Virus record (IMG/VR): IMGVR_UViG_3300011115_000874
Coordinates: 32,001 to 96,000 of that record
From: a virus
DNA: 64,000 bases
Strand: one strand, 5' to 3'
Shown in pieces: positions 20,899 through 41,444 of the stretch; within the stretch, counting starts at the first letter, position 1; every line of letters starts with the position of its first letter. Under the pieces are notes generated by a model. The model was not told the origin of the DNA, searched no databases, and saw nothing but the letters and a program-made list of their open reading frames with translations. Both the position numbers and the translations under genes were made by a program.

Positions 20899-20900
20899 AA

Positions 20901-22197: not shown

Positions 22198-22198
22198 A

Positions 22199-22438: not shown

Positions 22439-22488
22439 ATGTTTTTATTTTAAATATAACATTGTTTAGCCTGAAAGCCAAACTTTAG

Positions 22489-22594: not shown

Positions 22595-22597
22595 ATA

Positions 22598-22681: not shown

Positions 22682-22697
22682 AACTTTTTAATTTTAG

Positions 22698-24432: not shown

Positions 24433-24441
24433 ATGTTTTAA

Positions 24442-24684: not shown

Positions 24685-24747
24685 GTTATATGTGTTTTTA
24701 ATTATACCTGAATATAACATCACCTGATCGGGAAGCCAAACAAGAGG

Positions 24748-25296: not shown

Positions 25297-25557
25297 TTAT
25301 GCTGTTGTATTATTATCCTTACTGGCTATCATATTCATGACCTCGAGTACCTCGTCTGGTGAACACCATCCGCGGACATCATCATGCTCGCTCAATTTTA
25401 TCCACCCACCTGGACCCCATGCTGCGATTTCAGCTGTGGTCTCACCTCCATCTGAGTAATTGGTTTTACTGAATTGGACACTTATAGTGTATCCATTTTT
25501 GAATGTCATATGGAACCCATTATTGTATTCGTTTTGTGTTGCTCTAAATTTACTCAT
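25297..25557 (-). CDS. Hypothetical phage protein
   Basis: GFHMTFKNGYTISVQF...DVRGWCSPDEV. Confidence 0.6.
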   Translation of the reverse strand: MSKFRATQNEYNNGFHMTFKNGYTISVQFSKTNYSDGGETTAEIAAWGPGGWIKLSEHDDVRGWCSPDEVLEVMNMIASKDNNTTA

Positions 25558-25817
25558 ATGTCTAATGCTTTTCTTTGTATATTAATAAACCACTCAATTG
25601 TCTCACCATCCTCCTTAACCTTATCACTAGTGTCATTTAAAACGCAAACGTCAAAACGTGATTTGTGATACTCAATACTGTCATGATAATTTTTATGATC
25701 AGGTTTGATAAACGTTACTCGTCCTCCGTCCCCATCATCTACTACCTCGTAACCTAATCCTGTTACCATTTCAAATACTAGCTTGTTAAGCGCTTTTCTT
25801 GATTCTGTTTTGTTCAT
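25554..25817 (-). CDS. Early-array hypothetical protein
   Basis: 87 aa, follows a promoter copy. Confidence 0.6.
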   Translation of the reverse strand: MNKTESRKALNKLVFEMVTGLGYEVVDDGDGGRVTFIKPDHKNYHDSIEYHKSRFDVCVLNDTSDKVKEDGETIEWFINIQRKALDI

Positions 25818-25937
25818 GTTCGTGTTATTTAATTATGACTAAATATAACATCACTCTCACCAGAGGCCAAACCTAGGTACGGAAAAGGGCCCCAATGGGG
25901 CCCACATCCTATATAATTAAAAACACACACATGCTAC

Positions 25938-26456
25938 TTAACTGATCCTCTCTAGGTACATGTCCCCAAAGATATCATCTATCTCATCACTTATCGAATC
26001 TACATCCAAGCAAACCGCATCCTCGATTTCACTATTGACATTATTAGATAGTGTATTGTTGTCTAACTCCACCTCAATCACATTACTCCAGTTATTCAAC
26101 TCTAGTGTGACCAAGTCATCCGCGTTTAATTCCATATCAGTAACTGCTTTCTTAATTGATTCGATTACTCGTTCTGTCAACCTAGTGGCGAAGTCGATCA
26201 ACTCTGCTTTGGTAAGGTGAACATGTCCCGCGTACTTATCATCCTCTGTTACCATGTACTGGCCATCCACAACTCGGTCCTCTTTACTGAAACCAGCGCT
26301 ATCAAACTCAGGACCTTCGTCTTCCACTTCCACAGGTGACTCATCACATCCGCATCCACAAGCACCATCACTACAGATGGTTTCACCACACACTGCAATT
26401 TCAATTGCGCTAATCTTATCTTTTAACTCCATTAATTGTTCTAATACTGTCTTCAT
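25938..26456 (-). CDS. Acidic early protein, paralog of 30924..31268
   Basis: LTKAELIDF versus FTKEELIEF; contains a Cys-rich insert. Confidence 0.6.
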   Translation of the reverse strand: MKTVLEQLMELKDKISAIEIAVCGETICSDGACGCGCDESPVEVEDEGPEFDSAGFSKEDRVVDGQYMVTEDDKYAGHVHLTKAELIDFATRLTERVIESIKKAVTDMELNADDLVTLELNNWSNVIEVELDNNTLSNNVNSEIEDAVCLDVDSISDEIDDIFGDMYLERIS

Positions 26457-26518
26457 GTTATCTGTTTTTATTATTGATCTAAATATAACGTCCTAATTCC
26501 CCTAAGCCAAACCTAAGG

Positions 26519-26701
26519 TTATTTAAATCTGTATTTCTTTACCTTATAATCAGTTACTTCTTCATCCACCTCATCCTCCTCATCAACGTCCTTCTGATGA
26601 CTCATCACTCGGTGAACCGCTGTTTCCTCATCTTCAGCATCCACAAAATAAATTCGTTTAATTGTTTTCAAAACTGTTTCTTCTACCTTAAATGTCTTCA
26701 T
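26519..26701 (-). CDS. Early-array hypothetical protein (start revised to MKTFKV)
   Basis: Own promoter. Confidence 0.6.
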   Translation of the reverse strand: MKTFKVEETVLKTIKRIYFVDAEDEETAVHRVMSHQKDVDEEDEVDEEVTDYKVKKYRFK

Positions 26702-26764
26702 ATGTTTATGTTTTTTAATTATGTCTGAATATAGCATCCCTGTCCCGTTAAGCCAAACAAATGG

Positions 26765-27034
26765 TTAGTTAAGGTAAAACCCAATCTCATGTATTTCATT
26801 CTTAGCGAATGATTTAGCAGAGTCTAGGAAGTGTAGGTGCAAGTGCAAGGCGTTTATGTCGTCCATGATCTCCCTAGTTGGTCTCATATCCAGGTACATC
26901 ATTGAGTTGTGCTCTAGTTCCTGTATCTGTGTTAACGCCTGGCTTATTGACTTATTAGCCATAGCCAATATCTCTAGGACTTGATGTGCCTGTAAGCGTT
27001 CTAATACTTCGTCTGTGTGTTTATTGTAGTCCAT
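26765..27034 (-). CDS. Early-array hypothetical protein (start revised to MDYNKH)
   Basis: The revised start removes the overlap with 27045..27254. Confidence 0.55.
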   Translation of the reverse strand: MDYNKHTDEVLERLQAHQVLEILAMANKSISQALTQIQELEHNSMMYLDMRPTREIMDDINALHLHLHFLDSAKSFAKNEIHEIGFYLN

Positions 27035-27044
27035 GTGTCTATAA

Positions 27045-27254
27045 TTATAGGTTATCAATAAATTCTTGTACTTCTTCAACCAAATTTGCATCATCAATTT
27101 CATATCCATCTTTACTACGTAAAATGAAATCAATACATTTACCATTACTAGAGTCAATAAACTCTTTATACACTAATACTCCTTCCTTTAGATGTTGAAT
27201 AGTGTAAGTGTTTTCAACTACTTGACCCTCAATTTCATGTTTTAATAATTCCAT
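27045..27254 (-). CDS. Early-array hypothetical protein
   Basis: Own promoter. Confidence 0.6.
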   Translation of the reverse strand: MELLKHEIEGQVVENTYTIQHLKEGVLVYKEFIDSSNGKCIDFILRSKDGYEIDDANLVEEVQEFIDNL

Positions 27255-27329
27255 TGTGTTTATGTTTTTTAATTATGGTTAAATATAACATCAATTGTTC
27301 ACAAAGCCAAATAAGGGTGTAAGGGAGTT

Positions 27330-27584
27330 TTAAAATAGAAAATCCTCACCCTCTACAAACCCACTAACATCACCATACTCCCACTCAAATCTCCAAGTCC
27401 CATCTGGTCCTATATGACCAGAAATTAATTTACCATACTTTGAAGTACCATGACTTCGCCAAAATTCTCCTTTAGTAAATTGTCTTTCTCCTTCATGGTC
27501 AAGTAATTTATCTGTAGAACATAATGGTTTATCATACCAATACCACTTAAGTTTGTCAAAATCAATTTTGTTTTTCATATTCAT
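27330..27584 (-). CDS. Early-array hypothetical protein (start revised)
   Basis: Own promoter; Trp/Gly-rich. Confidence 0.6.
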   Translation of the reverse strand: MNMKNKIDFDKLKWYWYDKPLCSTDKLLDHEGERQFTKGEFWRSHGTSKYGKLISGHIGPDGTWRFEWEYGDVSGFVEGEDFLF

Positions 27585-27638
27585 GTTTTTAATTATACCT
27601 GAATATAACATCCATGCTCCGCAGAGCCAAGCAAGGGG

Positions 27639-27869
27639 TTAAACCCCTTTAAAATCAAAATCAATACATCTACCTAACATCATACCATACCCATCATGGC
27701 CTTCTATAAAAATTATATTATTATCATTTAATATCTTTTTACATTTAACCCAATTCACTCTCCCATCAACCCTACAAATTCTAAATCTATCCTTATCATC
27801 CATTCTCATTATAAAAATTCCATCACCACACTTAACAAACATTCCTCTTAACATTTCTAATCTTTCCAT
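27639..27869 (-). CDS. Early-array protein encoded by a nearly cytosine-free gene (76 aa)
   Basis: Only 2 plus-strand G (27698, 27699) in 231 nt; own promoter at 27894-27926. Confidence 0.75.
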   Translation of the reverse strand: MERLEMLRGMFVKCGDGIFIMRMDDKDRFRICRVDGRVNWVKCKKILNDNNIIFIEGHDGYGMMLGRCIDFDFKGV

Positions 27870-28015
27870 AATATTACATTTTTTAATTATGGTTAAATAT
27901 AATAAATATTACCCACAAAGCCAAACAATGGTACATGGGTCTTTAAGGAAGGTACATGGAAACAAGGTGGGACCCCGTTGGATCCCACTTGTAAAAACAC
28001 ACACATGGCTGGGTA

Positions 28016-28225
28016 TTAACCCACTAGCTCGATAGTCTTCATACGACGACGAGACATATTGTACATAGCGTTCGCTACGTCTTGGTTCACCGAACGGTTA
28101 CCATTAATGATGTTTGAAACATGACTGGTAGAATAACCAGTTGCTTCTGCTAGGCGAGCAGTGTCACCTTGTCTTTGACGTGCATTGTAGAACGCCAATT
28201 TTGCTGTACGATTTAATTTACGCAT
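28016..28225 (-). CDS. Cro/C1-type HTH protein
   Basis: TARLAEATGYSTSHVSNIING. Confidence 0.75.
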   Translation of the reverse strand: MRKLNRTAKLAFYNARQRQGDTARLAEATGYSTSHVSNIINGNRSVNQDVANAMYNMSRRRMKTIELVG

Positions 28226-28494
28226 AACTTTAATTAATTATTTATTTATATCTCAATATACGATAGTACTAGTGATAGAGCAAGCTATCCTTAAGAAGGG
28301 GTGAGGCATGAACTGATCAGGTCCATGCCTCGGTTAAGGGAGCTTTGCATCGCTTTCGAATCCCATGAGTAAGTGGTTATTCATCTTCCGGCATACGTTC
28401 CAGTTGATATAGCAGTGCCTACCTGCCTCCCTCATTGTTACCAGATTAAATGTCTCATAATCAACTTAGGCGTCTCATAATCAACTACTGGTAT

Positions 28495-28569
28495 TGGTTG
28501 CGGGAGGGGGATTCGAACCCTCGACCTCAAGGTTATGAGCCTTGCGAGCTACCACTGCTCTATCCCGCG
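28495..28569 (-). tRNA. tRNA-fMet(CAT), CCA encoded
   Basis: CGCGGGA...TCCCGCAACCA with a C1:A72 mismatch; CAAGG-CTCATAA-CCTTG anticodon arm. Confidence 0.9.
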
Positions 28570-28574
28570 ATATG

Positions 28575-28658
28575 TAGCCGGGGCGGGAATCGAACCCGCA
28601 CACCTGTTAGAGTACAAGATTTTAAGTCTTGCGTGTCTACCTATTTCACCACCCGGCC
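28575..28658 (-). tRNA. tRNA-Leu(TAA)
   Basis: GGCCGGG acceptor, GGTAGACAC, CAAGA-CTTAAAA-TCTTG anticodon arm, long variable arm. Confidence 0.92.
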
Positions 28659-28667
28659 ATTTGAGGC

Positions 28668-28841
28668 TTACGCCTCCGGAGTTGCCTCCGTTTGTTCAAC
28701 CTCGACTTGATCAACCTCAGCCTTAGGCTTAGATGGACGTCCACGTTTAACTGTTCCTCCGTTTGCTGCAACTCGTGCTGCGCGGGCCGCTAGACGTGCT
28801 TGACGTGCGCTACCCTCTACTACTGGTCTTCCTTTTTGCAT
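28668..28841 (-). CDS. 57-aa protein with AT-hook-like motifs (not in ORF track)
   Basis: MQKGRPVVEGSARQARLAARAARVAANGGTVKRGRPSKPKAEVDQVEVEQTEATPEA; own promoter. Confidence 0.7.
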   Translation of the reverse strand: MQKGRPVVEGSARQARLAARAARVAANGGTVKRGRPSKPKAEVDQVEVEQTEATPEA

Positions 28842-28905
28842 AACCTTTATTTATTTGTTTTTATTATTTGATTTAATATAATATCCAATCCTAACATAGC
28901 CAAAC

Positions 28906-29175
28906 TTATTCGTGGATAAGATTCACTTCTTTTACCACTTCTGAAACACTAAACTCTCGTTCCTCAGCCACGGCTATAAGTTGTTGAATCTGTCTTGCGT
29001 CGAAGACGTTATCTGGGTCTAGTACGTCGGTTAAGGCCGTTATAAACGTCTTAAATACCGCATCATCCACATTGTGGTAACTGATAACTCCTTTAATAGT
29101 TCCAATCAACTTACCGTAACGGGCGTGTATTGATTGTTCTGCATCTTTTCCTGGCTCAATGATTAAATTTTTCAT
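28906..29175 (-). CDS. Early-array hypothetical protein (start revised to MKNLII)
   Basis: Own promoter. Confidence 0.6.
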   Translation of the reverse strand: MKNLIIEPGKDAEQSIHARYGKLIGTIKGVISYHNVDDAVFKTFITALTDVLDPDNVFDARQIQQLIAVAEEREFSVSEVVKEVNLIHE

Positions 29176-29235
29176 ATATCTGTTTTTAATTATACCTGAA
29201 TATAACATCCCTGTCCCACTAGGCCAAACAAGAGG

Positions 29236-29463
29236 TTACACATTGTAAACCTCTTTTTTATTCACTGACCATATATCTCCATCCTTATCCATACAATGAA
29301 CCGTAGTGGGTCTTACCTTAACTATTTCTCCTACCCAATTTATTTCCCCAAAAAGACCATTTCGGATTAATTCAATTGTGGACCATTTAACTGATTCCCC
29401 TACCTTAAATGAACGTTTTGCTCTTGGTTTTTTAACTGCTGCTGTTTTGATAATCTTTGCCAT
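29236..29463 (-). CDS. Early-array protein, SH3/KOW-like beta fold likely (start revised to MAKIIK)
   Basis: FKVGESVKW...GEIVKV...VHC. Confidence 0.5.
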   Translation of the reverse strand: MAKIIKTAAVKKPRAKRSFKVGESVKWSTIELIRNGLFGEINWVGEIVKVRPTTVHCMDKDGDIWSVNKKEVYNV

Positions 29464-29530
29464 GTGTTTATATTTTTTAATTATGATTAAATATAACATC
29501 ATGTTCCCCAGAAGCCAAACATATCTTGAC

Positions 29531-29673
29531 CCTCCTATCCGGATCTCCCTACCGGATCCACCTACCCGATAATCCTGCGGCCATAACCGGGCATTAGGCG
29601 GCCTTAGGCGGCCCTCAATGCAATACGTTACCCGATACCCCTAGACCGGGTTAGGCCGGGTCCTAGACCGGGT
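29531..29673. repeat. GC-rich intergenic short-repeat patch
   Basis: taggcggcc x2, cctagaccgggt x2, acccgata x2, ccggatc x2. Confidence 0.7.
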
Positions 29674-29741
29674 ATGGATTCTACGCACGAGAAATGGGCA
29701 CGTTTCCGTACCCATCTCCCTATAATTAAAAAACACACACT

Positions 29742-30545
29742 TTATTCCTCTTCGTCCGCCTCTGGCAAACTGTACTCTACTTTACTAAACCCAATTCTAT
29801 ATTTGATATACGATTCAGTATCACAATCTCTGTTTTTACTAAAATATACCTTTCTACTATCACTACCTTTAATTCTATCAATATGACACATTGCTTCGGT
29901 CATGTGTTTCAATCTGTTACTACCTGCAAAATCACCTGCTTTAGTTACTTGTTGAATGTTAATGAACGATGTGTACTTTTTTAATTTGTTACCACCTTTC
30001 TTAACAATACATTGTAAATTCAAAAACCATAACTCAGCAGCGCTTTCAGTTGTACGGTAAGTATCTTTATACATTTCAATTACCTCAGCAATACTATCAA
30101 TCGCAATCACATCATAACCTTGGTCGAACACATACTCCATTGTTTCCTTAACTGTCTCAGTGTAATTCTTCAAAAATAATGTCGGTACAACCTTAAAACC
30201 AGGCATACGTTTGCAATATTTGAAGTGACCAATTTCATCCATCTCACCGCTCACAAACAATACCTTTTTACCTCTCGCCGCTAACTTAGATAACATATCT
30301 AATACCACCGTACTCTTACCTGAACCTGGTCCGCCACATATAATCATGTTAACCGCAGGCATTAAACCTTTATCCGTTGATAAAATCGAATCCATCAACG
30401 TTCCAGTTGACATTGGGCGAAATACAGATTCGTTAAACGATAACTCAGAACCTTTAAATATTTGAACTGATTTTGGGTCGAACGCTACTGTCTCTTTAAC
30501 TTTTGGCTTGCGACCTCTTTTCTTTTGCATTACTAAATTTTTCAT
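29742..30545 (-). CDS. RadA/Sms-like RecA-fold ATPase (ATPase domain only)
   Basis: GGPGSGKST Walker A, FVSGEM, IAIDSI Walker B, QVTKAGDFAG..LKH, KNR. Confidence 0.8.
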   Translation of the reverse strand: MKNLVMQKKRGRKPKVKETVAFDPKSVQIFKGSELSFNESVFRPMSTGTLMDSILSTDKGLMPAVNMIICGGPGSGKSTVVLDMLSKLAARGKKVLFVSGEMDEIGHFKYCKRMPGFKVVPTLFLKNYTETVKETMEYVFDQGYDVIAIDSIAEVIEMYKDTYRTTESAAELWFLNLQCIVKKGGNKLKKYTSFINIQQVTKAGDFAGSNRLKHMTEAMCHIDRIKGSDSRKVYFSKNRDCDTESYIKYRIGFSKVEYSLPEADEEE

Positions 30546-30610
30546 GTGTGTGTTTTTTATTATGAATTAAATATAACATCCCTTGTCCCGAAGGCCAAAC
30601 AAGTTGTGTA

Positions 30611-30823
30611 TTATTTTTTATTAAGAGAAGTTTTATAATTGTAAACAAAATCTCTCAATGTTTCACCTCGACAGATATCATACCCATTTTTTGCAGTGGT
30701 ATTATTTCTAGTAGCATATTCCTCTAACGCAGCATATGTTTCTGGGTATAATATTGTCTTCCACTCACTCAACTGTGTTTGTTGGATTCGAATACCTTCT
30801 CCTACGGTTAACTTCTTTGCCAT
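30611..30823 (-). CDS. Early-array hypothetical protein
   Basis: Own promoter. Confidence 0.6.
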   Translation of the reverse strand: MAKKLTVGEGIRIQQTQLSEWKTILYPETYAALEEYATRNNTTAKNGYDICRGETLRDFVYNYKTSLNKK

Positions 30824-30923
30824 TGTATTATGTGTTTTTAATTATATCTGAATATAACATCACCTAACCCAAAGGCCAAACAGAGGGCACCATTTTGTGC
30901 CCTCCTCTACCTTAAAGGTAATT

Positions 30924-31268
30924 TTACTTACCTAAACCCTCTAATACAGTCTCAACTACACTCTCAACATTCTCATCATCTAATACCCAATCAATACTAT
31001 CTACAACCTCATTTAATACTCTACCTCTACTAACTTTAACTTCAATTCCACCAATTACATCACTCTTTTTAGAGTATAAGGCATTTGTAAAATCAAAATT
31101 ATCCTTTTTACTTAACTCAAACTTCACACCATTTGCAACGGCATTACTAATTGTTTTAGTAAATTCAATTAACTCCTCTTTTGTGAAAGTAACAGTTTCG
31201 TTGTTAATTTCGTTTTCTAATTTAGCAACTTGTGCTTTTAATCCTAACAATTCTGCAATTTTGCTCAT
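30924..31268 (-). CDS. Early-array protein, paralog of 25938..26456; 3' part C-depleted
   Basis: Own promoter; plus-strand 30950-31071 has no G. Confidence 0.65.
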   Translation of the reverse strand: MSKIAELLGLKAQVAKLENEINNETVTFTKEELIEFTKTISNAVANGVKFELSKKDNFDFTNALYSKKSDVIGGIEVKVSRGRVLNEVVDSIDWVLDDENVESVVETVLEGLGK

Positions 31269-31338
31269 TTTGTTTTTGTTTTTAATTATTATTTTTTTAT
31301 TTGATTAAATATAACATCCATTTCCCACAAAGCCAAAC

Positions 31339-31563
31339 CTAACTTACCCTCTCTAAAAACTCTTCTTTACTAATCTTATTCTTAATAGCCCAAGATGCGG
31401 CATCACAAAAATAACCTTTAAAGAATATAAGATGATTGTATTTAGGTCTATTTATTATTTTAGGGTTAATTTTATAACCTTTTTCTCCAGCTATTTTAGC
31501 TAATAATTTTAACTCAGCTCTATCTTTACAGATAACTCCTTCATAATCTTTAAATTCTTTCAT
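31339..31563 (-). CDS. Early-array hypothetical protein
   Basis: Own promoter. Confidence 0.6.
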   Translation of the reverse strand: MKEFKDYEGVICKDRAELKLLAKIAGEKGYKINPKIINRPKYNHLIFFKGYFCDAASWAIKNKISKEEFLERVS

Positions 31564-31619
31564 GTTTGTGTTTTTTAATTATGACTGAATATAACATCTC
31601 TATTCTACAAAGCCAAACA

Positions 31620-31853
31620 TTACACAATAGTTCTTTTAACTGCTTTATACTCCACTAACTCATAACTTAACCAGTTTAATGGAATTTTTACTTTACCAAA
31701 ATTAATGGCCCCCATATTGGTGTTTGGGTCAAATTCCTCCATTATTTTAGATTTATTACCTACAATTTCTCCTACCTTAAACTCCATATCAAAGTGTTTA
31801 GTTATTTCTTTAACACCTTTTTTACTTAAACCTCTGTTGAAAATCTTTACCAT
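31620..31853 (-). CDS. Early-array hypothetical protein
   Basis: Own promoter. Confidence 0.6.
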   Translation of the reverse strand: MVKIFNRGLSKKGVKEITKHFDMEFKVGEIVGNKSKIMEEFDPNTNMGAINFGKVKIPLNWLSYELVEYKAVKRTIV

Positions 31854-31925
31854 TTTTATGTGTTTTTAATTATGACTGAATATAACATCAATGTTCGGCG
31901 AAGCCAAACAAAGTGGTGAGGGAGT

Positions 31926-32168
31926 TTAAATACTCACCTCACACACCACATAATCTAACTCCTCACCTTCCTCATCTTCACATGGGAACCCACTATCCTC
32001 ATTTTCCCAATCATAACTCTCATCATAAACTGGTCCAACATCAAATCCTGGAAAATCAAAATGATAAGTAAAATCAGTATGATCTGAAACTGATAATACT
32101 AATTGGGTCTCACCAAAACCCTCATTTTTTAACTCTGTTAATTGGTCGATTAATTCTTGTACTGTCAT
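31926..32168 (-). CDS. Very acidic early protein (MTVQELIDQL N terminus)
   Basis: Own promoter; D/E-rich. Confidence 0.65.
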   Translation of the reverse strand: MTVQELIDQLTELKNEGFGETQLVLSVSDHTDFTYHFDFPGFDVGPVYDESYDWENEDSGFPCEDEEGEELDYVVCEVSI

Positions 32169-32237
32169 GTGTTATTAATTTTTAATTATACTTAAATATA
32201 ACATCCCTGTTCCACAAAGCCAAACAAGAGGTGATGA

Positions 32238-32420
32238 TTATTCATCATCATCTTCAAAATCAATTTTTTCAAATCTCTCAATCTCATTTAGATCATCAAC
32301 ATATCTATCTAATTTTTGGGATAGATCTTCTAGATCAAAATTATGAGCTTTATCTATGTTTTTATTTGCTAGTTCAATAGCTTGTTTTAAGATTTTAACT
32401 AATTCTTTTTTTGCATTCAT
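32238..32420 (-). CDS. Early-array hypothetical protein
   Basis: Own promoter. Confidence 0.6.
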   Translation of the reverse strand: MNAKKELVKILKQAIELANKNIDKAHNFDLEDLSQKLDRYVDDLNEIERFEKIDFEDDDE

Positions 32421-32507
32421 AATATATATTTTTTAATTATACCTAAATATAACATCAATTGTTCGCGAGGCCAAACAAAGGGTGAAGGGGGGTTAAACCC
32501 CTCTTAC

Positions 32508-32861
32508 CTAAATCTTCTCACACATAGTCTCATCTGCCAAAAACTCTATAAATAAACTCTCACCTTCAAAATAACTACTAATACTTTTTCTAATACTAAC
32601 ATTATACCAAATATCCTTCCCCCAAATATCACTTAACTCTTTATCTTCTAAACAAACACCTTCACCTACAAACTCTTTAATTTCATTAATACTACAATCA
32701 TCATTATAATCTTCAAAATCATCATCCAACCAAAACTCATAACTCACTCTATCACCAATTTTATACTCATTATAATCACTCTCCATATTACCTAAAATCA
32801 ACCCATTAATAACATTTCCAATTCCAACATTTACATCAACCACATTTTTAAACTTTTCCAT
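32508..32861 (-). CDS. Acidic early protein encoded by a nearly cytosine-free gene (117 aa; start revised to MEKFKN)
   Basis: Only 2 plus-strand G (32527, 32536) in 354 nt; own promoter at 32886-32918. Confidence 0.8.
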   Translation of the reverse strand: MEKFKNVVDVNVGIGNVINGLILGNMESDYNEYKIGDRVSYEFWLDDDFEDYNDDCSINEIKEFVGEGVCLEDKELSDIWGKDIWYNVSIRKSISSYFEGESLFIEFLADETMCEKI

Positions 32862-33075
32862 ATTTTTATATTTTTTAATTATACCTAAATATAATAAAAA
32901 TGGTACACAAAGCCAAACAAAGGGTGACAAAGGTTTCTCCCCTATATATTTATAATAGAATTTCAATTGCGAAGACGACACATTGCCCTGGTGGCGAAAA
33001 TCACTGAAGCTAGTAGTTATTGATGCTCAACCAGACTAGAAAAAAGAGCAGGCGCCACGGCGCCCACCACTGTCT

Positions 33076-33537
33076 TTAGCTAACCGCCAAGTATCTCTCA
33101 GCCTGGCTCCAATTCTGGAACCATGGGTTACTAGCGTAGTTGTTTGGGCTCACATTCAGGTCTATCTGGCCTGGGAAGTGATAGTCAATATGCCGTAACA
33201 CCTTTTGCACTAGCGACGGCTTAACATACACCCAAAACTGACCTCCCTCGCTGTCATACTGGATCCCTTCGCCTGCCTTGAACTGGGTCTGGAGTGAGAG
33301 CTCAATGTCGTAGTGGGACAGCTCTCCTTTAGCGCACCCGCTTATGCAAATTGTCAATTTCTGGCTGTGGGGAATGGTTCTTTGAATCTCCTCTTCCTTT
33401 TCATTTTTATACATCTCGTAGGTGCTCTTTTCAAAGTCAGTTGGCTCCCTGTCCTTGTAGGTGACTTCCCATGCTCTTTTTACATCCACCATTAGCTTAG
33501 CTACTCTCAGCTTGATCTCCCTTAAATGATCTTCCAT
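33076..33537 (-). CDS. Early-array hypothetical protein, GC-richer than its neighbours
   Basis: 153 aa; own promoter at about 33555-33588. Confidence 0.6.
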   Translation of the reverse strand: MEDHLREIKLRVAKLMVDVKRAWEVTYKDREPTDFEKSTYEMYKNEKEEEIQRTIPHSQKLTICISGCAKGELSHYDIELSLQTQFKAGEGIQYDSEGGQFWVYVKPSLVQKVLRHIDYHFPGQIDLNVSPNNYASNPWFQNWSQAERYLAVS

Positions 33538-33589
33538 GTGCTTTATTTATTTAACTAAATATAACATCCCTTTCCCCCTAAGCCAAACC

Positions 33590-34100
33590 TTCTTGTTCCC
33601 CCTTTGGTTTCCCCTACCGGATCCTCCTACCAGTTACCCCTACTTGCTCCCCCTACGCGGCCACTGCCATTGCCCCGATGGGGTAGGCGTTTATTTCCAC
33701 AGTATCCCCATTTATTTGCCCCGGGGTGGGGGATATTTTGTATATATTTTTTCGATAAAAAGTTTGGCTTGTTGTGGCGGGCTGGGTTACCGTCCCCTTG
33801 CCCTCATATAACCCGTTTCCCCTACGTTTGTCACATACCACCCTTATATATACTTATATTTGGATATGTGAGTCACACTTGTTCTTCCGTTTGTCACACT
33901 TGGTCCTCCTACCCTATCACCCTACTTGATACCCCTACTTGTTTCCCCTCTTGATCACCCTACCTTTTTTCCCTTACTCGTTTCCCCTACCCTATCACAC
34001 TCCTGTCTCAAACGAATATTCCTCATCCGTCGTTTTGTTTTCCCTACCTGATTCCCCTACCTGATCTTCCTTATCTGATATTCCTACTTGATCTCCCTTA
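33590..34100. repeat. Cluster of (C)CCCTAC/CCTAC short repeats
   Basis: At least ten same-strand copies in the intergenic gap, continuing into the 3' end of 33995..34300. Confidence 0.7.
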
Positions 34101-34300
34101 TAATGTAGGTTATAATATTTTTCTCCATTCTCTATAAACCAGTTTTGTTTTTTATTTATAACATCTCTGTTATATGCTCCTACTATTATGTCACGTTCTT
34201 CTTTTAGTAATGTTTCTATGTTTTGAGACATCCAATAGTGAAATTCGCTTTCACTCATTTTGTAATAGTTCTCTTTAAGTTGTTGTATCGGTGTTTTCAT
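33995..34300 (-). CDS. Hypothetical phage protein (MKTPIQQL...E.YYN pattern)
   Basis: 101 aa ORF. Confidence 0.55.
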   Translation of the reverse strand: MKTPIQQLKENYYKMSESEFHYWMSQNIETLLKEERDIIVGAYNRDVINKKQNWFIENGEKYYNLHYKGDQVGISDKEDQVGESGRENKTTDEEYSFETGV

Positions 34301-34563
34301 AATTTTTTTATATCATCTTCCCATTTCCATCCTAAACATACTTTCATCATTGTTCTATGAAACCAATTAGGTTTCTTTTCAAATGCGATGCATAATGCTT
34401 TATTTCCTAGATAATAATAACCCACATATTTAGGGCCTATATATTGAGTAAATGTAGCGGTGGATGTATTGTTTTCAACAACCCAATCAGCATACTCACT
34501 CACTTCAGTTTTTATTTCCTCAGGTGTCTCGTTCATTAAACGTTCTACTGTTTTAGTTTTCAT
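34297..34563 (-). CDS. Hypothetical protein
   Basis: KKPNWFHR..MK..LGWKW. Confidence 0.55.
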   Translation of the reverse strand: MKTKTVERLMNETPEEIKTEVSEYADWVVENNTSTATFTQYIGPKYVGYYYLGNKALCIAFEKKPNWFHRTMMKVCLGWKWEDDIKKL

Positions 34564-34716
34564 CTTCTAAGTTTATATTTATTAATTCAATGAGTGCTTC
34601 TTTTTGTCGCATCTTCTCTAATATCTCTAATCCATGTCTAGATACTATAAAGTGAGCATCATTCATAAAGAAACTATCCCATACTATTTTTAATGCAAAT
34701 GCGTTCCAAAATTCCT

Positions 34717-35019
34717 TCATATTTCCTTTTCGTATTTAGTATGTGGATAAAAATCTACACAATAAACTTTTACTCGCTCCAACTCTAATCCACCATTGAA
34801 ATCATCTACTTCATAGACATGATGTCCTTCAAGTTCATCTGGGTATTTACTATTAAATGGTACCCATTCAACATATGTAACTTTACTATCTGTTCCTATT
34901 CCATAGTATTCATCTATACCTGCTTTGAGATCCTCTTCTGTATGAGCAGTTGCTATTGGCTTTCCCCATTGAGATAATGCCACATATGTTACTTTAATGT
35001 ATGTTCTTGTTTGTGTCAT
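34717..35019 (-). CDS. Hypothetical protein
   Basis: 100 aa, coupled to the upstream gene. Confidence 0.55.
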   Translation of the reverse strand: MTQTRTYIKVTYVALSQWGKPIATAHTEEDLKAGIDEYYGIGTDSKVTYVEWVPFNSKYPDELEGHHVYEVDDFNGGLELERVKVYCVDFYPHTKYEKEI

Positions 35020-35669
35020 ATTAATCGTTTTTCGTGATGATCTTTTGGTAATGTTAGTTTAGCAATTGGTCTAGATACCATTTTAATTAATATATCATCC
35101 ATTTCAATTGGCTCCAAATCATTTCCATCAACTCCTACATCCATTGCTTTACCAGCCGCCATTCTTAAATGTTTAGGTAGGTGAACGTGTCCATGTAAAT
35201 GTATTGCTCCATCATTCATTCCATTCCAACTTGCAATTGGATAGTGCATACAAATAAAATGTGCTCGGTCTTTTTTCTTACCTGCAATCCACCAACTAAC
35301 ATCTAAATCTAAGTAGTGGTTTACTGAACTGAATATTAACTGTATGTCGTCTCTATTTTTTTCAATGTGCCCATCATGGTTACCAAGTACTAAATGTACA
35401 TTTTGACATACAATTCTATCTCTAAATTCCTTAATACTCTCAAATCCACCAAATGACCAATCACCTAAGTGAATTAAGATATCATCTTGTTGAACATACT
35501 TGTTGATGTTAGATACTAATGTTTCATTCATTTTTTGTAATGAACTAAAATCACGAGTAACCGAGTCAGCATCTGTCCAACGTGTAGTTGCTCTACATAT
35601 GTTAGTGTGGTTGTAGTGGGTATCACTTGTGAACCATAATCGTTGATGTTGTTTTAATTCTATTTTCAT
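35016..35669 (-). CDS. Calcineurin-like metallophosphoesterase (start revised to MKIELK)
   Basis: SDTH, LGD, GNHD, HYP, HGHVH. Confidence 0.85.
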   Translation of the reverse strand: MKIELKQHQRLWFTSDTHYNHTNICRATTRWTDADSVTRDFSSLQKMNETLVSNINKYVQQDDILIHLGDWSFGGFESIKEFRDRIVCQNVHLVLGNHDGHIEKNRDDIQLIFSSVNHYLDLDVSWWIAGKKKDRAHFICMHYPIASWNGMNDGAIHLHGHVHLPKHLRMAAGKAMDVGVDGNDLEPIEMDDILIKMVSRPIAKLTLPKDHHEKRLI

Positions 35670-35675
35670 AATACC

Positions 35676-35708
35676 TAAATATAACAAGAAAAGGCCCGAA
35701 GGCCAAAC
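35676..35708 (-). promoter_or_regulatory. Early promoter whose -33 box is part of a GGCC-TTCG-GGCC hairpin with U tract (terminator/promoter hybrid)
   Basis: Minus strand reads GTTTGGCCTTCGGGCCTTTTCTTGTTATATTTA. Confidence 0.7.
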
Positions 35709-35709
35709 C

Positions 35710-36843
35710 TTAGTGTGAATCTCCTACATCATGTTTCTCACTATAGATCAAATAATCAGGATTAATTACTTTAGCTACTTTTTCTCTTTGTCCACTCACA
35801 TGTTTAATTACAATACCTTCGTGTGGCACTTTAGTACCTTCAATAAAATTATTGAATGTGAATTTATCCTGCATTTCCTGAGACCATGATGCTACAAGTA
35901 ACTCAGGTACGTGTGGTAATGATAATCCAGCATTTATAATATGTCTTGTTCTAATTGTATTCTGGTACTCGCCATTGATCGTAATATCAAACCCAGCAAA
36001 CTCTAACTCTTTCAACCCATAATCATAATTCTTTTGGATACCAGGGCCATATACTTCACCATACAATACAATACCAGATCCTACTTCTTCAAAAATGCTT
36101 AAGTCAACTGATTTTACAAAATGCCATAATTTGTTTTTGATATCGTACTTATCAGCAATTGTTCTCCATACGTCTGTGTCGTAGAAACCTTGAGTATCAG
36201 ATCCTTTCTCTACGTTATGTGAACCATAAACATACTCGTATTCAATCCATTTATCAGCCAAACGTAAGAACTTCTTACACTTATCCCAAAACGATAATTT
36301 ATGTTTCTTAACAATACCATAACGAGCATTTGTACCATGCATCTTACGGGTGATCTGTACGTTATCTTTTTCACTAAACATCCCAGTTACATTCTTGATG
36401 TTAGGGAATTTATGGTACACTGTGAAGTTAGGATTGTCTTTATATTTAATCTTACGACCTCCAGCTAATTGTACTTGACGTACTGGTGGTTCATATTTGA
36501 AGATACCTAACAATTCCATTACATCTGTTCCCTCGACACGTTTAACACCTTGAACATACGTTAAAGGTATAATCAAGCACTCAGAATATACTCCTCTCAA
36601 CTTAACAGTACGTACACGTTGACCCTTACGTAAGTAATTGGTTACGTTCATTGCGTCTGAAAGTTCTTGAGGTATGACCGCGTCTGTAGTTGCTACAACT
36701 ACTAAGTCATCTACCTTGTACTCTCCCTTCTTGATAATACAATTCCATCCACCGATAACACCTTGTTCGATATTATCAGCTCCAGGTATTTCTTTAATTT
36801 CATTTACACGTGCTACATAGCACACTGAGTTATTATTTTCCAT
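35710..36843 (-). CDS. RNA ligase (DRB0094/Rnl2-like family with N-terminal OB domain)
   Basis: IPGADNIE, RVRTVKLRGVYSECL, motif I TRKMHGTN, YGEVYGPGIQKNY, FDI, HEGIVIK, AKVINPDYL. Confidence 0.88.
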   Translation of the reverse strand: MENNNSVCYVARVNEIKEIPGADNIEQGVIGGWNCIIKKGEYKVDDLVVVATTDAVIPQELSDAMNVTNYLRKGQRVRTVKLRGVYSECLIIPLTYVQGVKRVEGTDVMELLGIFKYEPPVRQVQLAGGRKIKYKDNPNFTVYHKFPNIKNVTGMFSEKDNVQITRKMHGTNARYGIVKKHKLSFWDKCKKFLRLADKWIEYEYVYGSHNVEKGSDTQGFYDTDVWRTIADKYDIKNKLWHFVKSVDLSIFEEVGSGIVLYGEVYGPGIQKNYDYGLKELEFAGFDITINGEYQNTIRTRHIINAGLSLPHVPELLVASWSQEMQDKFTFNNFIEGTKVPHEGIVIKHVSGQREKVAKVINPDYLIYSEKHDVGDSH

Positions 36844-36844
36844 A

Positions 36845-37228
36845 TTATAACTTTATTTCAAAACGGTTTCGCATTTGTTCTATCTTATCATCTGGGCATC
36901 CGTGGATGTTTTTACCATCATGTCTATTCTCTACTATAAGGCAAGATGTTTGATACCCATACTTCTCAGCCAATTCAAAGTAAGCATCCATTTCCCATTC
37001 TTGAGTGAATGTATTAGCAACTACAATCATACCTAACCCATCTTCCATGGAGTGTTCAACACGTAGTTTGCACCAATTATGTGCTTGTTTAAGCTTCGAA
37101 GCATCAAACTTATATTCACCATCTCGCATAAAATATTGATCCGCTTCAAACATATAACAGCCTAATGACTTAGCTAGTGTTGATTTACCCGATCCAGGTA
37201 ATCCTCTTAATAATATTAATTGTTTCAT
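36845..37228 (-). CDS. P-loop polynucleotide kinase-like protein (AAA_33; start revised to MKQLIL)
   Basis: LRGLPGSGKST, EADQYF, VANTF, NIHGCP. Confidence 0.8.
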   Translation of the reverse strand: MKQLILLRGLPGSGKSTLAKSLGCYMFEADQYFMRDGEYKFDASKLKQAHNWCKLRVEHSMEDGLGMIVVANTFTQEWEMDAYFELAEKYGYQTSCLIVENRHDGKNIHGCPDDKIEQMRNRFEIKL

Positions 37229-37267
37229 AATGACTAAATATAACAAGAAATGATCTAGAAGCCAAAC

Positions 37268-37483
37268 TTAATCTTCATCATCGTCATCACCATATGGTGC
37301 TTCGTTCCATGTTTTGAATTGGTCGGCGCGTTCAATTTCTTCCCATGACCATTCATCTATTTCTTCCTCGTCTTTATATTTACTTATAATTTCAATTATA
37401 TGATGAGGTTTTAATGTGTGTCCACTATATATAACTCCACACAATTCTTTTTCAATTTCTTCTAATAAACTATTCTTATCCAT
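37268..37483 (-). CDS. Small acidic protein (start revised to MDKNSL)
   Basis: ORF coupled to the upstream gene. Confidence 0.5.
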   Translation of the reverse strand: MDKNSLLEEIEKELCGVIYSGHTLKPHHIIEIISKYKDEEEIDEWSWEEIERADQFKTWNEAPYGDDDDED

Positions 37484-38426
37484 TGGTTGTTGTGTATTCA
37501 CCATTATCTCTTAATTCGTATCCTATTGTTTCACTCTCTTCTCCTGTTACTGGGTTGGCTGTGATACCATATCTATCAGCTAATTCTCTAAGACTATAAC
37601 TTAAACTTGGTCTTTCTTTAAATCGATCATTATTAATTTCTTTAATATCATCATTACATAAATCATAATTTGTTTTCTTACAATTTCTTAAATCATTAAT
37701 TATAACATCTAAGACATGAGATGGTAAGTTAGATTCTGTTGAGTCAATTCTATCATCTACTTCATTCCAAAATGATGTTTCACGACTATGATCTTCATCT
37801 AAGTTTTTAAACGCAGCTACTTTAGCACCTGTTTTTTTACTCATAGTGTAAATCAAGATACCTCGTCTAGTATAATTGTGGTATTGGTATTCTTCACTTG
37901 TTGAGGCGGTGCACCATTTAGTTCCTGCTCCATACTTACAAGACGATTCATATGTTAATGGTTTAACCACTAACCACTCATCATCTTCATAAATTTTTAA
38001 AACAAATTTCTCTAAATCTTTATTAATCATCTTCAACTCAGCAACTGAGATCGCAGCCATTACTTCGTCTAATGATTTGTATGATGTAATGTCTTTATTA
38101 TCAATTAAATTTCTTTCATTTAATTCAACAAATCTATTCACCTCCATAAGAGTATTATCATTAACACTATCTAATGCGTCAGTGACCGCTACTAAAGTAG
38201 GTAATGGTAATTGTTTAACAAATTCTTCTTTAAAACCCATATCCACTAAAGTAGTAGTGTAACTATTTTTAATGTGGTCTTTATGAATCCGTTTATGAAA
38301 ATTTTGTTTATGTAGATTGAGTGTTAACTCAACATACTTAGTTTTTTCAAATAGAATGCTGAGTGCATCTATTACCCCTATATTCATGTTGGGGTTTTGT
38401 TCTTTTAATGTGCTTAATTTACTCAT
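37476..38426 (-). CDS. Hypothetical protein with PcfJ-like motif
   Basis: PLTYESSCKYGAGTKWCT. Confidence 0.45.
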   Translation of the reverse strand: MSKLSTLKEQNPNMNIGVIDALSILFEKTKYVELTLNLHKQNFHKRIHKDHIKNSYTTTLVDMGFKEEFVKQLPLPTLVAVTDALDSVNDNTLMEVNRFVELNERNLIDNKDITSYKSLDEVMAAISVAELKMINKDLEKFVLKIYEDDEWLVVKPLTYESSCKYGAGTKWCTASTSEEYQYHNYTRRGILIYTMSKKTGAKVAAFKNLDEDHSRETSFWNEVDDRIDSTESNLPSHVLDVIINDLRNCKKTNYDLCNDDIKEINNDRFKERPSLSYSLRELADRYGITANPVTGEESETIGYELRDNGEYTTTNG

Positions 38427-38587
38427 AACCTTAATATAATAACCTTTATTTAAAATGCCAATTTATTCTTCATCAAATAAATCCTTCCCATCATAATCAG
38501 GGTGATTTTTTTCCATATAATCTAATCCTAAAACCATTAACACCGCTATAATAGCTGCTAATGTAAATGAAATAATTGCTGATGCTA

Positions 38588-38815
38588 TCATAAAAATAAT
38601 CTTTTAATAATTTCCCATTTTGATTTAAACTCTATTTTCTCAAACTTACCATTTACATTCACAACCCAAGCAAACATACTCTCACTCCAACGTTTGTAAG
38701 TACAATGTCTACATACTAAGTTCTTACCTTGATGTTGAGGTCGTTGGTATGGTCTAGGATTAGTTGTGAACATAAATAATGGATATATTCGTTTACAGTC
38801 AAAGCATTTTTTCAT
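38588..38815 (-). CDS. Small Zn-ribbon protein
   Basis: CFDC...CRHC. Confidence 0.55.
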   Translation of the reverse strand: MKKCFDCKRIYPLFMFTTNPRPYQRPQHQGKNLVCRHCTYKRWSESMFAWVVNVNGKFEKIEFKSKWEIIKRLFL

Positions 38816-39906
38816 TCGTAACTTTCTCTATCAATATTAATAACATATGGAAATCTTGGAACACCATCTGGTGTTAGATTAAAATACTTAACTGTAGCTG
38901 ATTTGCCAATCAATTCTTGTTTTTGTTTCCAAAGTTCTTTACATTCATCCCAACTATACTTAGGTGATGAATTGAATATATGACCTGTTTTACTTCTAAA
39001 TACAAATGAACCTACCATTCCTGTTTTATTACCTTCACCTTCAACTACATCTAAAATAGTATATTCTTCATCTATAAATGATTTATGTTTAAGTAATGAT
39101 TTAGAACGTTTTGATTCATATTCTTTATCTAAGCGAATCATTTGACCTTCATAACCTTGATTAACATACTCACTATACAAATCTATTAATAAACTCTCAT
39201 CTATAACAAAATGAGTATCTACTCGTTTACAACATTTAGGTAAATCTAAACTATATAATGTTTCAGATCGTTTACTAAACACCCCACTACAACTAGGTAA
39301 ATCATAAATGTGATATTGAATTTGTTCTTTACTTTTTTCTAAATCATCACTTGTTGGTTTAGTTTTTTTAACTAATGAACAAATAGCATTAAAGTCATTT
39401 GCAAACTTATCGGCATAAAGTTCTCCATCAAATATCAAATCAGGATTAGATTCAAATAATGGTTTCATTGCTTCATAAATGTGAGGTGCTGAAACTATTT
39501 TCTTACCATTTCTACTCCACATACCATCTGCTCTAACAATACATCTAATACCATCTAATTTAGGTTGTGAGTAAACAGGATAAATAATTTTATCTTTATA
39601 GTCTTCAAATTTATGAGCTAACATTGGATTGAAGAACTTAGGTGTATCAATATCACTTATTGATTCATAACTACCTAACTCTAATTTTTTAGTCCACATC
39701 GCTTGAGCCTCAGCTAATGCTTGTTGTTCAGGTGTTGTTTCATTTTTCTTACCAATGTTCTTACCAGAACAACAAGTCCATTCAGAAGTTGTTTTAACTC
39801 CATCATTGTAACCTGATATTGTTCTGAAACAGTTGTTTTCTACTTCAACGGTCCATTCATTGATTTTACCGTTTACTGCTCTTTTATATAATGTGTTTAA
39901 TTTCAT
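38812..39906 (-). CDS. ATP-dependent DNA ligase
   Basis: PMLAH, QPKLDGIRC, FDGELY, YHIYD, GYEGQMIR, RSKSLLKHK, TPDGVPRFP. Confidence 0.92.
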   Translation of the reverse strand: MKLNTLYKRAVNGKINEWTVEVENNCFRTISGYNDGVKTTSEWTCCSGKNIGKKNETTPEQQALAEAQAMWTKKLELGSYESISDIDTPKFFNPMLAHKFEDYKDKIIYPVYSQPKLDGIRCIVRADGMWSRNGKKIVSAPHIYEAMKPLFESNPDLIFDGELYADKFANDFNAICSLVKKTKPTSDDLEKSKEQIQYHIYDLPSCSGVFSKRSETLYSLDLPKCCKRVDTHFVIDESLLIDLYSEYVNQGYEGQMIRLDKEYESKRSKSLLKHKSFIDEEYTILDVVEGEGNKTGMVGSFVFRSKTGHIFNSSPKYSWDECKELWKQKQELIGKSATVKYFNLTPDGVPRFPYVINIDRESYE

Positions 39907-39968
39907 AGACTAAATATAACAAAGAATGGCCCGAAGGCCAAACATTTGTTATATAGAGGTGTGTGTTT

Positions 39969-40574
39969 TTAGCGCTTACTATGTAAATAATTACTCATTA
40001 TGTTACCTATTGCACCTGTCTTTTGACGAATGTATATCCACTCATCTTTAACTATTTTATGTTTCTTTTCAATATAATGAATACCCATAACACCTATGAT
40101 ACGTCCATCTAAATCAGTTAATGATAGTAAATAAATTGATTTACATTTACCACCAGTTGTTGTATTAAGTAAATATGAGTTAGTTGACTCAGCATCTTCA
40201 ATTATAACTTCTCCATTTTCATATAACTCAGATAATGGTTTATTAAATAATGATACAGGTATGTTTTGATAGATGTTTTTAACTGATTCAATGTTTGGGT
40301 TTAATACCTCATAGAATATAGAGAATTTTTGTATTGATTTACCAGTTGGGTAAAAGTGACCACCATTATGGAATTGAGCTATGAATATTTGATCACAATC
40401 CAACTCATCAAGCATAAGGTCTAATTGGTGTTCAATCTGTTCATTATACTTAATAGACTCAGGTAGTGGGTCTGATTTCTTTTTATCGACTTTTGCTTTA
40501 ACCCATTCTAACAATACAGGTCCTAACACTGATGTAATGAGTGCTATTACAACTGGTACTAAAATATCTATCAT
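39969..40574 (-). CDS. Single-TM protein with GAF-like C-terminal domain; candidate T4 T-like holin
   Basis: N-terminal TM helix, IAQFHNG...FSIFYE...IIGVMGIHY; directly downstream of the endolysin. Confidence 0.5.
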   Translation of the reverse strand: MIDILVPVVIALITSVLGPVLLEWVKAKVDKKKSDPLPESIKYNEQIEHQLDLMLDELDCDQIFIAQFHNGGHFYPTGKSIQKFSIFYEVLNPNIESVKNIYQNIPVSLFNKPLSELYENGEVIIEDAESTNSYLLNTTTGGKCKSIYLLSLTDLDGRIIGVMGIHYIEKKHKIVKDEWIYIRQKTGAIGNIMSNYLHSKR

Positions 40575-40585
40575 CTCTGTTTCTT

Positions 40586-41410: not shown

Positions 41411-41444
41411 AGTAAATCGTTTAGTGATAAATATCACCTACTTT

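Follow-up and report, generated by a model that had tools for sequence, protein, structure and literature searches.

Why would a phage write a gene almost without one of the four nucleotides, and what keeps it that way? The locus that raises this question lies in a stretch of 64,000 nucleotides of a phage genome (hereafter the window), where the plus strand contains no G over the 365 nt from 32537 to 32901. Since genes here are oriented on the minus strand, which holds 219 of the 225 ORFs, the G-free plus strand is the template strand and its counterpart a C-free coding strand. The run extends from inside a promoter spacer to codon 108 of the gene at 32508..32861 (minus strand; 117 codons plus stop, 354 nt), which we call the C-less gene and assign to family A. 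It is the longest run free of any single base, both in the window and in the whole genome of 160,798 bp, in which the runners-up among G-free runs measure 191 nt (27700-27890), 122 nt (30950-31071) and 98 nt, and runs lacking A, C or T reach 63 nt at most.

The coding strand of the C-less gene holds 119 A, 2 C, 99 G and 134 T, the two cytosines being those of a GCA codon (Ala109) and an ACT codon (Thr112). These counts agree with the first-pass annotation, which had reported the G-free stretch and a CDS with two C, one from Ala and one from Thr. It had also claimed that the product lacks Pro, Gln and His and that every synonymous choice is C-free, and this holds for the whole gene: none of the 114 codons of C-optional amino acids carries a C, for which the codon usage of the genome's other ORFs gives a chance of about 1e-12 to 1e-14, and Ala, Pro, Thr, Gln and His residues occur twice against 25 expected (P = 3e-10). 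With a background of 14% C the probability of such a run (0.86^365) is about 1e-24 per position and about 2e-19 genome-wide, which we regard as agreement with the earlier estimate of near 1e-20 or lower. AT-richness, which had likewise been discounted, is not the cause of the absence of C, since G makes up 28% of the coding strand, with T at 38%; the neighbouring gene 33076..33537 sits within a kilobase of 47% GC. The per-gene base counts that had been proposed as a check reveal two discrete outliers and no smooth tail of C depletion. Coding-strand C averages 13.8% per ORF (sd 3.6%, 225 ORFs), falls to 0.56% in 32508..32861 and to 0.87% in 27639..27869, and stands at 6.4% in the next lowest ORF.

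Homologues of the family A protein form 25 clusters at 90% identity and, among 1.84 billion representatives, 26 clusters at 50% identity, all of about 90-125 aa. One homologue is labelled Synechococcus lacustris, most likely because a phage contig was binned with that organism. At the DNA level we compared twelve genes of family A, taken from metagenome and viral contigs of independent origin; each has 1-5 C over its 270-372 nt, and this is equally true of the two that are most distant (33-37% identity). The gene thus stays C-less while its sequence diverges, down to 33% identity, as the first reading of the locus had suggested should be checked. Of the NNY codons in the twelve genes, 647 have T as their last base and two have C, and of the 38 C left over, 33 occupy the second position of an Ala or Thr codon. 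Cytosine has been purged alike in RC and YC contexts, and comparison of close relatives shows many A<->G differences and few T<->C differences. At the protein level Ala, Pro, Thr, Gln and His account for 0-5% of residues in nearly all 26 clusters, against 21% in the proteome.

Since NNC codons have been removed although they are read by the same tRNAs as NNT codons, the constraint falls on the nucleic acid and not on tRNA supply, and we rejected a tRNA- or codon-level cause. Taken together, these comparisons indicate purifying selection, at the nucleotide level, against C anywhere in the transcribed unit. The earlier proposal that the gene is selected to be expressed when cytidine is a liability therefore stands as far as selection against C is concerned. 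Homologues of normal C content had been named as an argument to the contrary, and they appear in a minor way: P0064 (L245:986-1294), a distant relative within the family, carries 21 C over its 309 nt. The composition of P0064 implies that the fold itself does not require a restricted alphabet, and that the constraint is contextual. As a side observation, we note that the relaxed members of family A are P0054 and P0064.

By its predicted signals 32508..32861 is a real, self-contained early cassette, consisting of a -33/-7 promoter, an A/T-only leader, the ORF of 117 codons and a GC-hairpin terminator. The predicted early promoter and leader occupy 32862..32917 and comprise a -33 box TTTGGC (32917..32912), TATATTTA (32893..32886), (T)ATAAT (32883..32878) and a leader of 16 nt made of A and T only (32877..32862), all on the minus strand. 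Directly after the stop codon stands a terminator hairpin, GGGG-TTTAA-CCCCCC (32487..32507, minus strand; RNAfold -12.9 kcal/mol), and this layout recurs in all homologous cassettes. Beyond the last nine codons of the gene the next C is in the 3' arm of this hairpin, and apart from those in two codons, all cytosines of the family A message are base-paired in the stable GC stem.

The promoter follows an early pattern, TTTGGC - 18 nt - TATATT(T/C)A - 3 nt - ATAAT - TAAAAA, which has 17 strict copies in the genome and which we take to be the -33 TTTG / -7 TAnnTTTG arrangement of primary-sigma promoters in Bacteroidota. The C-less genes have promoters of a subtype of their own: T-rich sequence stands in place of the (G)GATG ahead of TATATT, AAAAAAT(A/G) stands in place of the AAAAACA that is conserved in other early leaders, and the spacer contains 4 G+C, compared with a mean of 8.1 and a minimum of 5 in the 16 other early promoters. 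Each gene of the C-less families is a one-gene cassette, and in families A, B and C (the latter two described below) the C-free zone opens at ATAAT, takes in both the leader of A and T only and the ORF, and closes at a GGGG-loop-CCCC hairpin, where the 3' arm begins. A C immediately 5' of ATAAT is tolerated in C-less promoters, as in TTTAACCATAAT, and because it is tolerated just there the boundary of the zone fits the transcript. Judged from these signals, the C-free zone is the transcription unit in all three families.

Family A is not alone. The second outlier is the CDS of a C-less cassette at 27639..27926 (minus strand) that belongs to family B and is unrelated to family A. Its promoter lies at 27870..27926 and its CDS at 27639..27869 (both on the minus strand), encoding 76 aa (pI 8.4) with 2 C, both in GGC-CAT, and the plus strand is G-free from 27700 to 27890. 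The family B stop codon sits in the terminator loop, abutting the first terminator C. There are 16 homologous clusters of this protein, also nearly without Ala, Pro, Thr and Gln, and the homologous genes in contigs L001, L002 and L015 have 2 C each. Family C encodes a membrane peptide of 63 aa with two hydrophobic helices and 0 C; in L006, L009 and L015 it immediately follows family A, and the window lacks it. Family D is represented by gp143 (68330..68686) from immuto_2-6A, a cultured Flavobacterium phage; this is an acidic protein whose gene has 5 C in 357 nt and which hhalign indicates to be unrelated to family A (probability 0.2%). A related genome, G007, contains a 5-kb island of C-poor genes (2.5-6% C). 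These comparisons indicate that, in this phage clade, C-less writing is shared by at least four small-protein families that are unrelated to one another. The content of C-less cassettes differs between close relatives, as seen in the variable presence of family C, in the family D gene of immuto and in genome G001, which carries only family A.

What, then, is this phage? Its genome is a single IMG/VR record with direct terminal repeats, rated 100% complete by CheckV. PHROG and Pfam matches include a baseplate wedge, an RNA ligase, a DNA ligase, PolB, a Clp protease and glycosyltransferases. Among cultured phages, those most closely related to it are the Immutovirus phages that infect Flavobacterium sp. 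LMO8; these have the same genome size and a baseplate wedge 47% identical, and next comes 'Microcystis phage Mel-JY01' (47%). These matches, together with synteny with immuto, identify it as a myovirus, and by homology it is an uncultured aquatic immuto-like phage; with immuto it shares the possession of a C-less gene besides the synteny and the baseplate wedge.

Like the DpdA3-type 7-deazaguanine phages, it encodes a DpdA3 homologue and the preQ0 enzymes FolE, QueD, QueE and QueC (Pfam GTP_cyclohydroI, PTPS, Radical_SAM and QueC, all above cut-offs), the latter along with a phosphoribosyltransferase and a MazG-like pyrophosphatase beside PolB. The DpdA3-type transglycosylase (L013:11860-12666, minus strand) is 36% identical over 96% of its length to DpdA of immuto_2-6A (E = 7e-46) and 33-34% identical to CP220-group proteins, and it scores 26.3 bits against Pfam DUF6610, just below the cut-off of 27. 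More than 577 loci in IMG/VR encode DpdA3 homologues. In the DpdA3 phages CP220, phiST and immuto_2-6A all G is replaced by a 7-deazaguanine derivative, as established by mass spectrometry (Cui et al. 2023, PMC10516641), and in immuto_2-6A the base was identified as fdPreQ1, with full replacement measured (PMC10516641). Since the preQ0 pathway and DpdA3 are encoded here too, the virion DNA of our phage probably has every G replaced by a 7-deazaguanine derivative. No match to the dCMP/cytidine deaminase family and no canonical TGT were found in the phage genome.

The distribution of C-less genes was surveyed against this background. In a control composition scan of seven genomes (T4, CP220, phiST, phiSM, Mel-JY01, LR756508 and G006) no ORF fell below 5.6% C and none below 6.1% G, and T4, used as a mirror test for a G-less gene in an hmC phage, had none. 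Within our sample C-less genes occur only in genomes bearing DpdA3, namely G000, G001 and immuto, with the C-poor island of G007 in addition. The DpdA3-less relatives Mel-JY01 and LR756508 have no C-less gene. Neither do the DpdA3-bearing phages CP220 and phiST (100% replaced), which differ from ours in this respect, nor the IMG/VR genomes G004 and G006. The resulting count, 3-4 of 10 with DpdA3 versus 0 of 4 without, is not significant, comes from a small sample and is confounded by phylogeny.

The pattern requires an agent that charges a cost per C in the message or per G in the template, regardless of neighbouring bases; the cost must cover precisely one transcription unit and fall on a few early cassettes only. 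Agents at the DNA level and at the RNA level both fit. The explanation that we rank first, with a probability of about 35%, operates on the DNA: a template without modified guanine stays readable while the host attacks modified bases. Three RNA-level versions, discussed below, have about equal or slightly greater weight when they are added together, still short of even odds. If G replacement is complete, a G-free template strand would bear no modified bases, and a host enzyme that recognises, excises or cuts at modified G, for example a Dag-type defence glycosylase or a type IV-like nuclease, would find about 50 targets on the template strand of an ordinary gene of ~350 nt and 2 in the C-less cassette. 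Taking fewer hits, the cassette would remain transcribable for longer from the injected DNA and could deliver first-response proteins. The selective agent would thus be template damage. The first-pass annotation had listed guanine lesions on the template strand among its candidate pressures, with DarT1 as the source; the candidate moves to the front here, with the phage's own 7-deazaguanines, in place of DarT1 lesions, as the proposed target.

Several observations are consistent with a template kept free of modified guanine. Selection acts at the nucleotide level (647:2 at NNY codons), the C-free zone coincides with the transcription unit in families A, B and C, and the genes for the modification (FolE, QueD, QueE, QueC, the phosphoribosyltransferase, the MazG-like enzyme and DpdA3) are present. 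Immuto_2-6A, which is fully modified, has its own unrelated C-less gene (gp143), and in the sample C-less genes are confined to DpdA3-bearing genomes. The spacers of the C-less promoters are not transcribed and yet are the poorest in G:C, which a purely RNA-level agent would not predict. Defence glycosylases that excise 7-deazaguanines do exist, and they fragment phage DNA in proportion to the density of the modification (bioRxiv 10.1101/2025.10.29.685425). Such enzymes, which include Dag1 and Dag2, resemble Brig1, which acts on glucosyl-hmC, in that the host inflicts damage once per modified base, a per-site hazard; they were found in Vibrio integrons and not in Bacteroidota, and their link to the C-less gene is one that we infer.

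Other observations weigh against this explanation. Full replacement of G is not sufficient to bring about the trait, as CP220, phiST, G004 and G006 have no C-less gene, and the co-occurrence with DpdA3 (3-4/10 versus 0/4) is confounded by phylogeny and not significant. Both strands of the promoter still contain G, and damage to the remainder of the genome would not be averted, so that the cassette would gain only a head start. No defence that attacks 7-deazaguanine is known in Bacteroidota, and an agent acting on C in RNA predicts all features of the transcribed unit equally well. More tentatively than for the cassette itself, we propose that the C-less genes of G-modifying phages may be one instance of a general principle, in which base-replacing phages would write swappable first-response genes with a template lacking the replaced base. 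Such a template would be damage-proof and could be expressed while the host attacks the modified bases.

The next candidate, which we consider unlikely although it comes closest to the template explanation among single alternatives, is a hazard in RNA synthesis. The cassette would need no CTP and would be expressed when CTP is scarce or when a chain terminator such as viperin-made ddhCTP is present, every C bringing with it a constant risk that the polymerase stalls or terminates; prokaryotic viperins reportedly make ddhCTP. A per-nucleotide hazard of this type predicts that C is purged in every context, as it is (NNY 647:2), and the C-free zone does start near the expected start site, with C returning only in the last 10-20 nt of the transcript, where early termination costs nothing. 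Nevertheless no viperin or CTP-depleting enzyme is linked to the host or the phage, nor was a deaminase found in the phage genome. In family B, moreover, the stop codon abuts the first C of the terminator, and a polymerase stalled there would block translation termination. A synthesis hazard predicts no G:C poverty in an untranscribed spacer and provides no reason for the trait to arise in a G-modifying clade.

Distinctly less probable is the second RNA-level version, in which the message evades an activity that cuts or modifies RNA at single-stranded C, be it a host defence RNase, a collateral CRISPR RNase or the phage's own shut-off RNase, and would in that way persist longer than other messages. 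Known endoribonucleases recognise motifs, the avoidance of which does not need the total removal of C, and in the C-less genes RC and YC are purged alike; no candidate enzyme was identified, and the depletion of the promoter spacer is not predicted. In favour of the idea, the message exposes almost no single-stranded C, and the RNA ligase of the phage, together with metallophosphoesterases, resembles an RNA repair set, suggesting that RNA damage matters in this infection. The C-less gene resembles restriction-site avoidance and the ACA-less, MazF-resistant mRNAs in that the target of an enzyme would be excluded at the cost of codon choice, but it goes further than either by dropping a whole nucleotide in all contexts together with five amino acids. 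Motif avoidance of the ACA-less or restriction-site-free type was accordingly rejected, as C is absent in all contexts and what remains of it stands only where Ala or Thr demands it.

A self-inflicted effect at the DNA level is a little more doubtful again. Here modified G, or DpdA3 at work on the template, would slow the host polymerase, or a phage factor would discriminate by the status of G, and the few genes that need immediate or maximal output would avoid G in the template. The genomic context of FolE, QueD, QueE, QueC and DpdA3 suits this possibility. Polymerases generally tolerate substituents at position 7, which point into the major groove; this argues against it, as does the fact that all other phage genes are read from modified templates and that CP220, phiST, G004 and G006 manage without C-less genes.

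Lower in our ranking stands the third RNA-level version, evasion of Rho, for which we see little chance. Rho loads on C-rich, G-poor naked RNA, and a message without C would remain unbound and escape premature termination where transcription outruns translation. The ligand of Rho is YC and not C after purines, however, and C after purines has been purged as strictly as C after pyrimidines. Rho targets have been characterised as long stretches of C over G combined with T-richness, and a purine bias protects genes from it (Dierksheide et al. 2026, PMC13323073). A G>C skew, which fits, runs through the coding strands of the whole phage, and the sense strand of the C-less gene favours G over C (99 G versus 2 C) at the expense of codon usage, just as in genes biased against Rho. 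That bias is graded and genome-wide (PMC13323073), unlike the few discrete, T-rich cassettes seen here, and we rejected a graded bias of this sort on the distribution of C, with two outliers at 0.6-0.9%, the next ORF at 6.4% and a mean of 13.8%. Furthermore, the T-richness of these genes (38%) raises the Rho score (PMC13323073), giving up the last few C and five amino acids is far more than a lower score would call for, and each transcript is short, monocistronic and provided with a terminator of its own.

Protection of the DNA itself is more improbable than any of these. The non-template strand, bared while transcription proceeds, would offer no C to deaminate, or the gene would present no GC-containing palindromic site to restriction enzymes, and the strict separation of G and C between the strands does remove every palindromic site with a G:C pair. 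However, a phage whose genome was cut or edited at other sites would die all the same, selection against mutation of one small gene is weak, and complete replacement of G, measured in the relative immuto, already blocks enzymes with G in their site (PMC10516641).

We attach practically no weight to a single C-to-T hypermutation event or an assembly artefact, as opposed to a maintained feature: the ORF is intact, its relatives are equally C-less, four families and dozens of independent assemblies show the trait, divergent homologues differ at many sites and never gain C, and, since family A is C-less on independent assemblies from several metagenome sources, the artefact that the first reading had allowed for is ruled out.

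Other ideas were set aside on composition or folding. An R-loop or purine-rich RNA does not account for a message in which U is enriched (38%) and only C is missing. Weak mRNA structure is not the aim either: the C-less messages, at -0.10 to -0.13 kcal/mol per nt, do belong to the least structured ones, but an ordinary neighbour folds at -0.117. A synthetic origin was also rejected. Like the synthetic G-less and C-less cassettes used for in vitro transcription, the cassette offers a few hundred bases that can be transcribed with three NTPs; those constructs are engineered, non-coding, C-rich repeats, whereas the present one is a natural, conserved, protein-coding gene.

The protein products provide few clues. 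The family A protein is small and strongly acidic (117 aa, pI 4.05, 28 Asp+Glu versus 10 Lys+Arg), in which it resembles the DNA-mimic inhibitors of restriction and glycosylases Ocr, ArdA and Ugi. AlphaFold2 modelled family A with a pLDDT of 91 and family B with 84.5, and searches of PDB and BFVD with Foldseek and VIA-align found no convincing relative of the family A fold (best scores: PDB Z = 4.4, Foldseek E = 0.16, BFVD E = 0.06). For family B the best PDB score was Z = 5.8 (VIA-align), and both Z values are within the noise of the tool. Pfam and PHROG gave no match for family A, family B or the neighbours, tblastn against phage records gave none, and the ESM Atlas returned only unnamed viral clusters (0.87). 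The suggestion that the acidic product inhibits the very defence that selects against C thus receives no support from fold or family searches, and since the other C-less genes encode a basic protein of 76 aa and a two-TM membrane peptide, an acidic inhibitor is not the common denominator.

In their organisation the C-less cassettes resemble the mobile PeSL cassettes of T4-type phages, small early ORFs placed between their own early promoter and a stem-loop terminator, which are also swappable, with a content that varies between related phages. To our knowledge, PeSL cassettes have not been described as lacking a nucleotide. Our literature searches turned up neither natural genes that do without one nucleotide, and with it five amino acids, under lasting selection, nor template-strand avoidance of modified bases, and in the literature on DpdA3-type phages we found no mention of genes with a G-less template.

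The pattern implies that something in these infections acts once per C in the message or once per G in the template, and C-less writing would mark a handful of tiny genes as the phage's answer to it. This would offer a route, by sequence only, to first-response genes, and perhaps to counter-defence genes, in uncultured phages. The same genes also provide natural examples of proteins that use 15-17 amino acids and of transcription units that need three NTPs. Were the link with guanine replacement true, the conflict between phage and host over modified bases would acquire a new level.

Two further tracts deserve mention. The C-poor tract at 123.5-123.65 kb of Mel-JY01 was rejected as a C-less gene, being G-rich and probably non-coding DNA between hairpins. 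In the window, the G-free stretch of 122 nt on the plus strand (30950..31071) lies in the 3' half of the gene 30924..31268, which encodes 114 aa and is otherwise ordinary, with 23 C in all; this stretch may be what is left of a C-less gene, or a chimeric fragment of one.

Besides the C-less early gene (family A), the window carries a second, unrelated C-less cassette on the minus strand (27639..27926; family B), which encodes a basic protein of 76 aa in which four Cys are conserved. The promoter of this cassette belongs to the same subtype as that of family A, and the loop of its hairpin terminator contains the stop codon of the gene. The only two C in family B make up a GGCC, in which GGC is a synonymous choice, and this GGCC was kept in four of the four homologues whose DNA was examined.

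C-free stretches were also seen in other settings. An otherwise ordinary early gene on the minus strand (30924..31268) has a C-free part of 122 nt in its 3' half (30950..31071), and may be either a chimera with a C-less gene or the remnant of one in decay. On the plus strand, a further G-free run of 98 nt (49661..49758) exceeds the chance maximum for this genome, roughly estimated at ~66 nt. For family A itself, a relative (P0054; NCBI GCA_041442895.1, a 657-bp contig) has an additional N-terminal leader, MKLIKEAKRLQQLAGINE, of ordinary amino-acid composition.

Among the related phages with a match to DpdA3, the DNA guanine transglycosylase, G007 (IMGVR_UViG_3300007734_000760) holds a C-poor island of 5 kb on the minus strand (143,300..148,300), where the C content of the six early genes is 2.5-6.4% and G-free runs of 101-167 nt occur on the plus strand. 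The island is a graded form of the C-less trait in a DpdA3-bearing relative. Two near-complete relatives have no C-less gene (G004) or only a weak one (G005), and the DpdA3 match of each contains one in-frame stop (G004 66450..67241 and G005 94955..95743; TAA and TGA). The enzyme might be inactive in both, which would be relevant to any connection of C-less genes with G modification.

The window's early promoters form an array of near-identical minus-strand copies (19588..43001; 16 strict copies in the window and one outside) with the consensus TTTGGC-N18-TATATTYA-N3-ATAAT-TAAAAA. Each small gene has one such promoter, which usually begins at most a few bases from the preceding terminator. This layout is of the Bacteroidota type and argues for a Bacteroidota host.

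An RNA ligase (PHROG 968, E = 3e-61) adjoins a metallophosphoesterase on the minus strand (35016..36843), and a second metallophosphoesterase lies further along (41950..42678, minus). By analogy with T4 Rnl/Pnkp these genes may constitute an RNA repair set, hinting that RNA-cutting host defences matter to this phage. Two weak minus-strand matches to the tRNA model (22489..22594 and 22698..22773; 32.7 and 29.3 bits), neither called as tRNA by ARAGORN, look like tRNA-like RNAs distinct from the four clear tRNA genes (two Met, Cys and Leu-UAA). Finally, 33538..33995 (~450 nt) contains no convincing minus-strand ORF and gave no Rfam match, has long A-free runs on the plus strand (33588-33615 and 33762-33788), and lies in a kilobase (33001-34000) of 47% GC, compared with 32% for the genome; this region could represent a structured RNA or some other kind of non-coding element.
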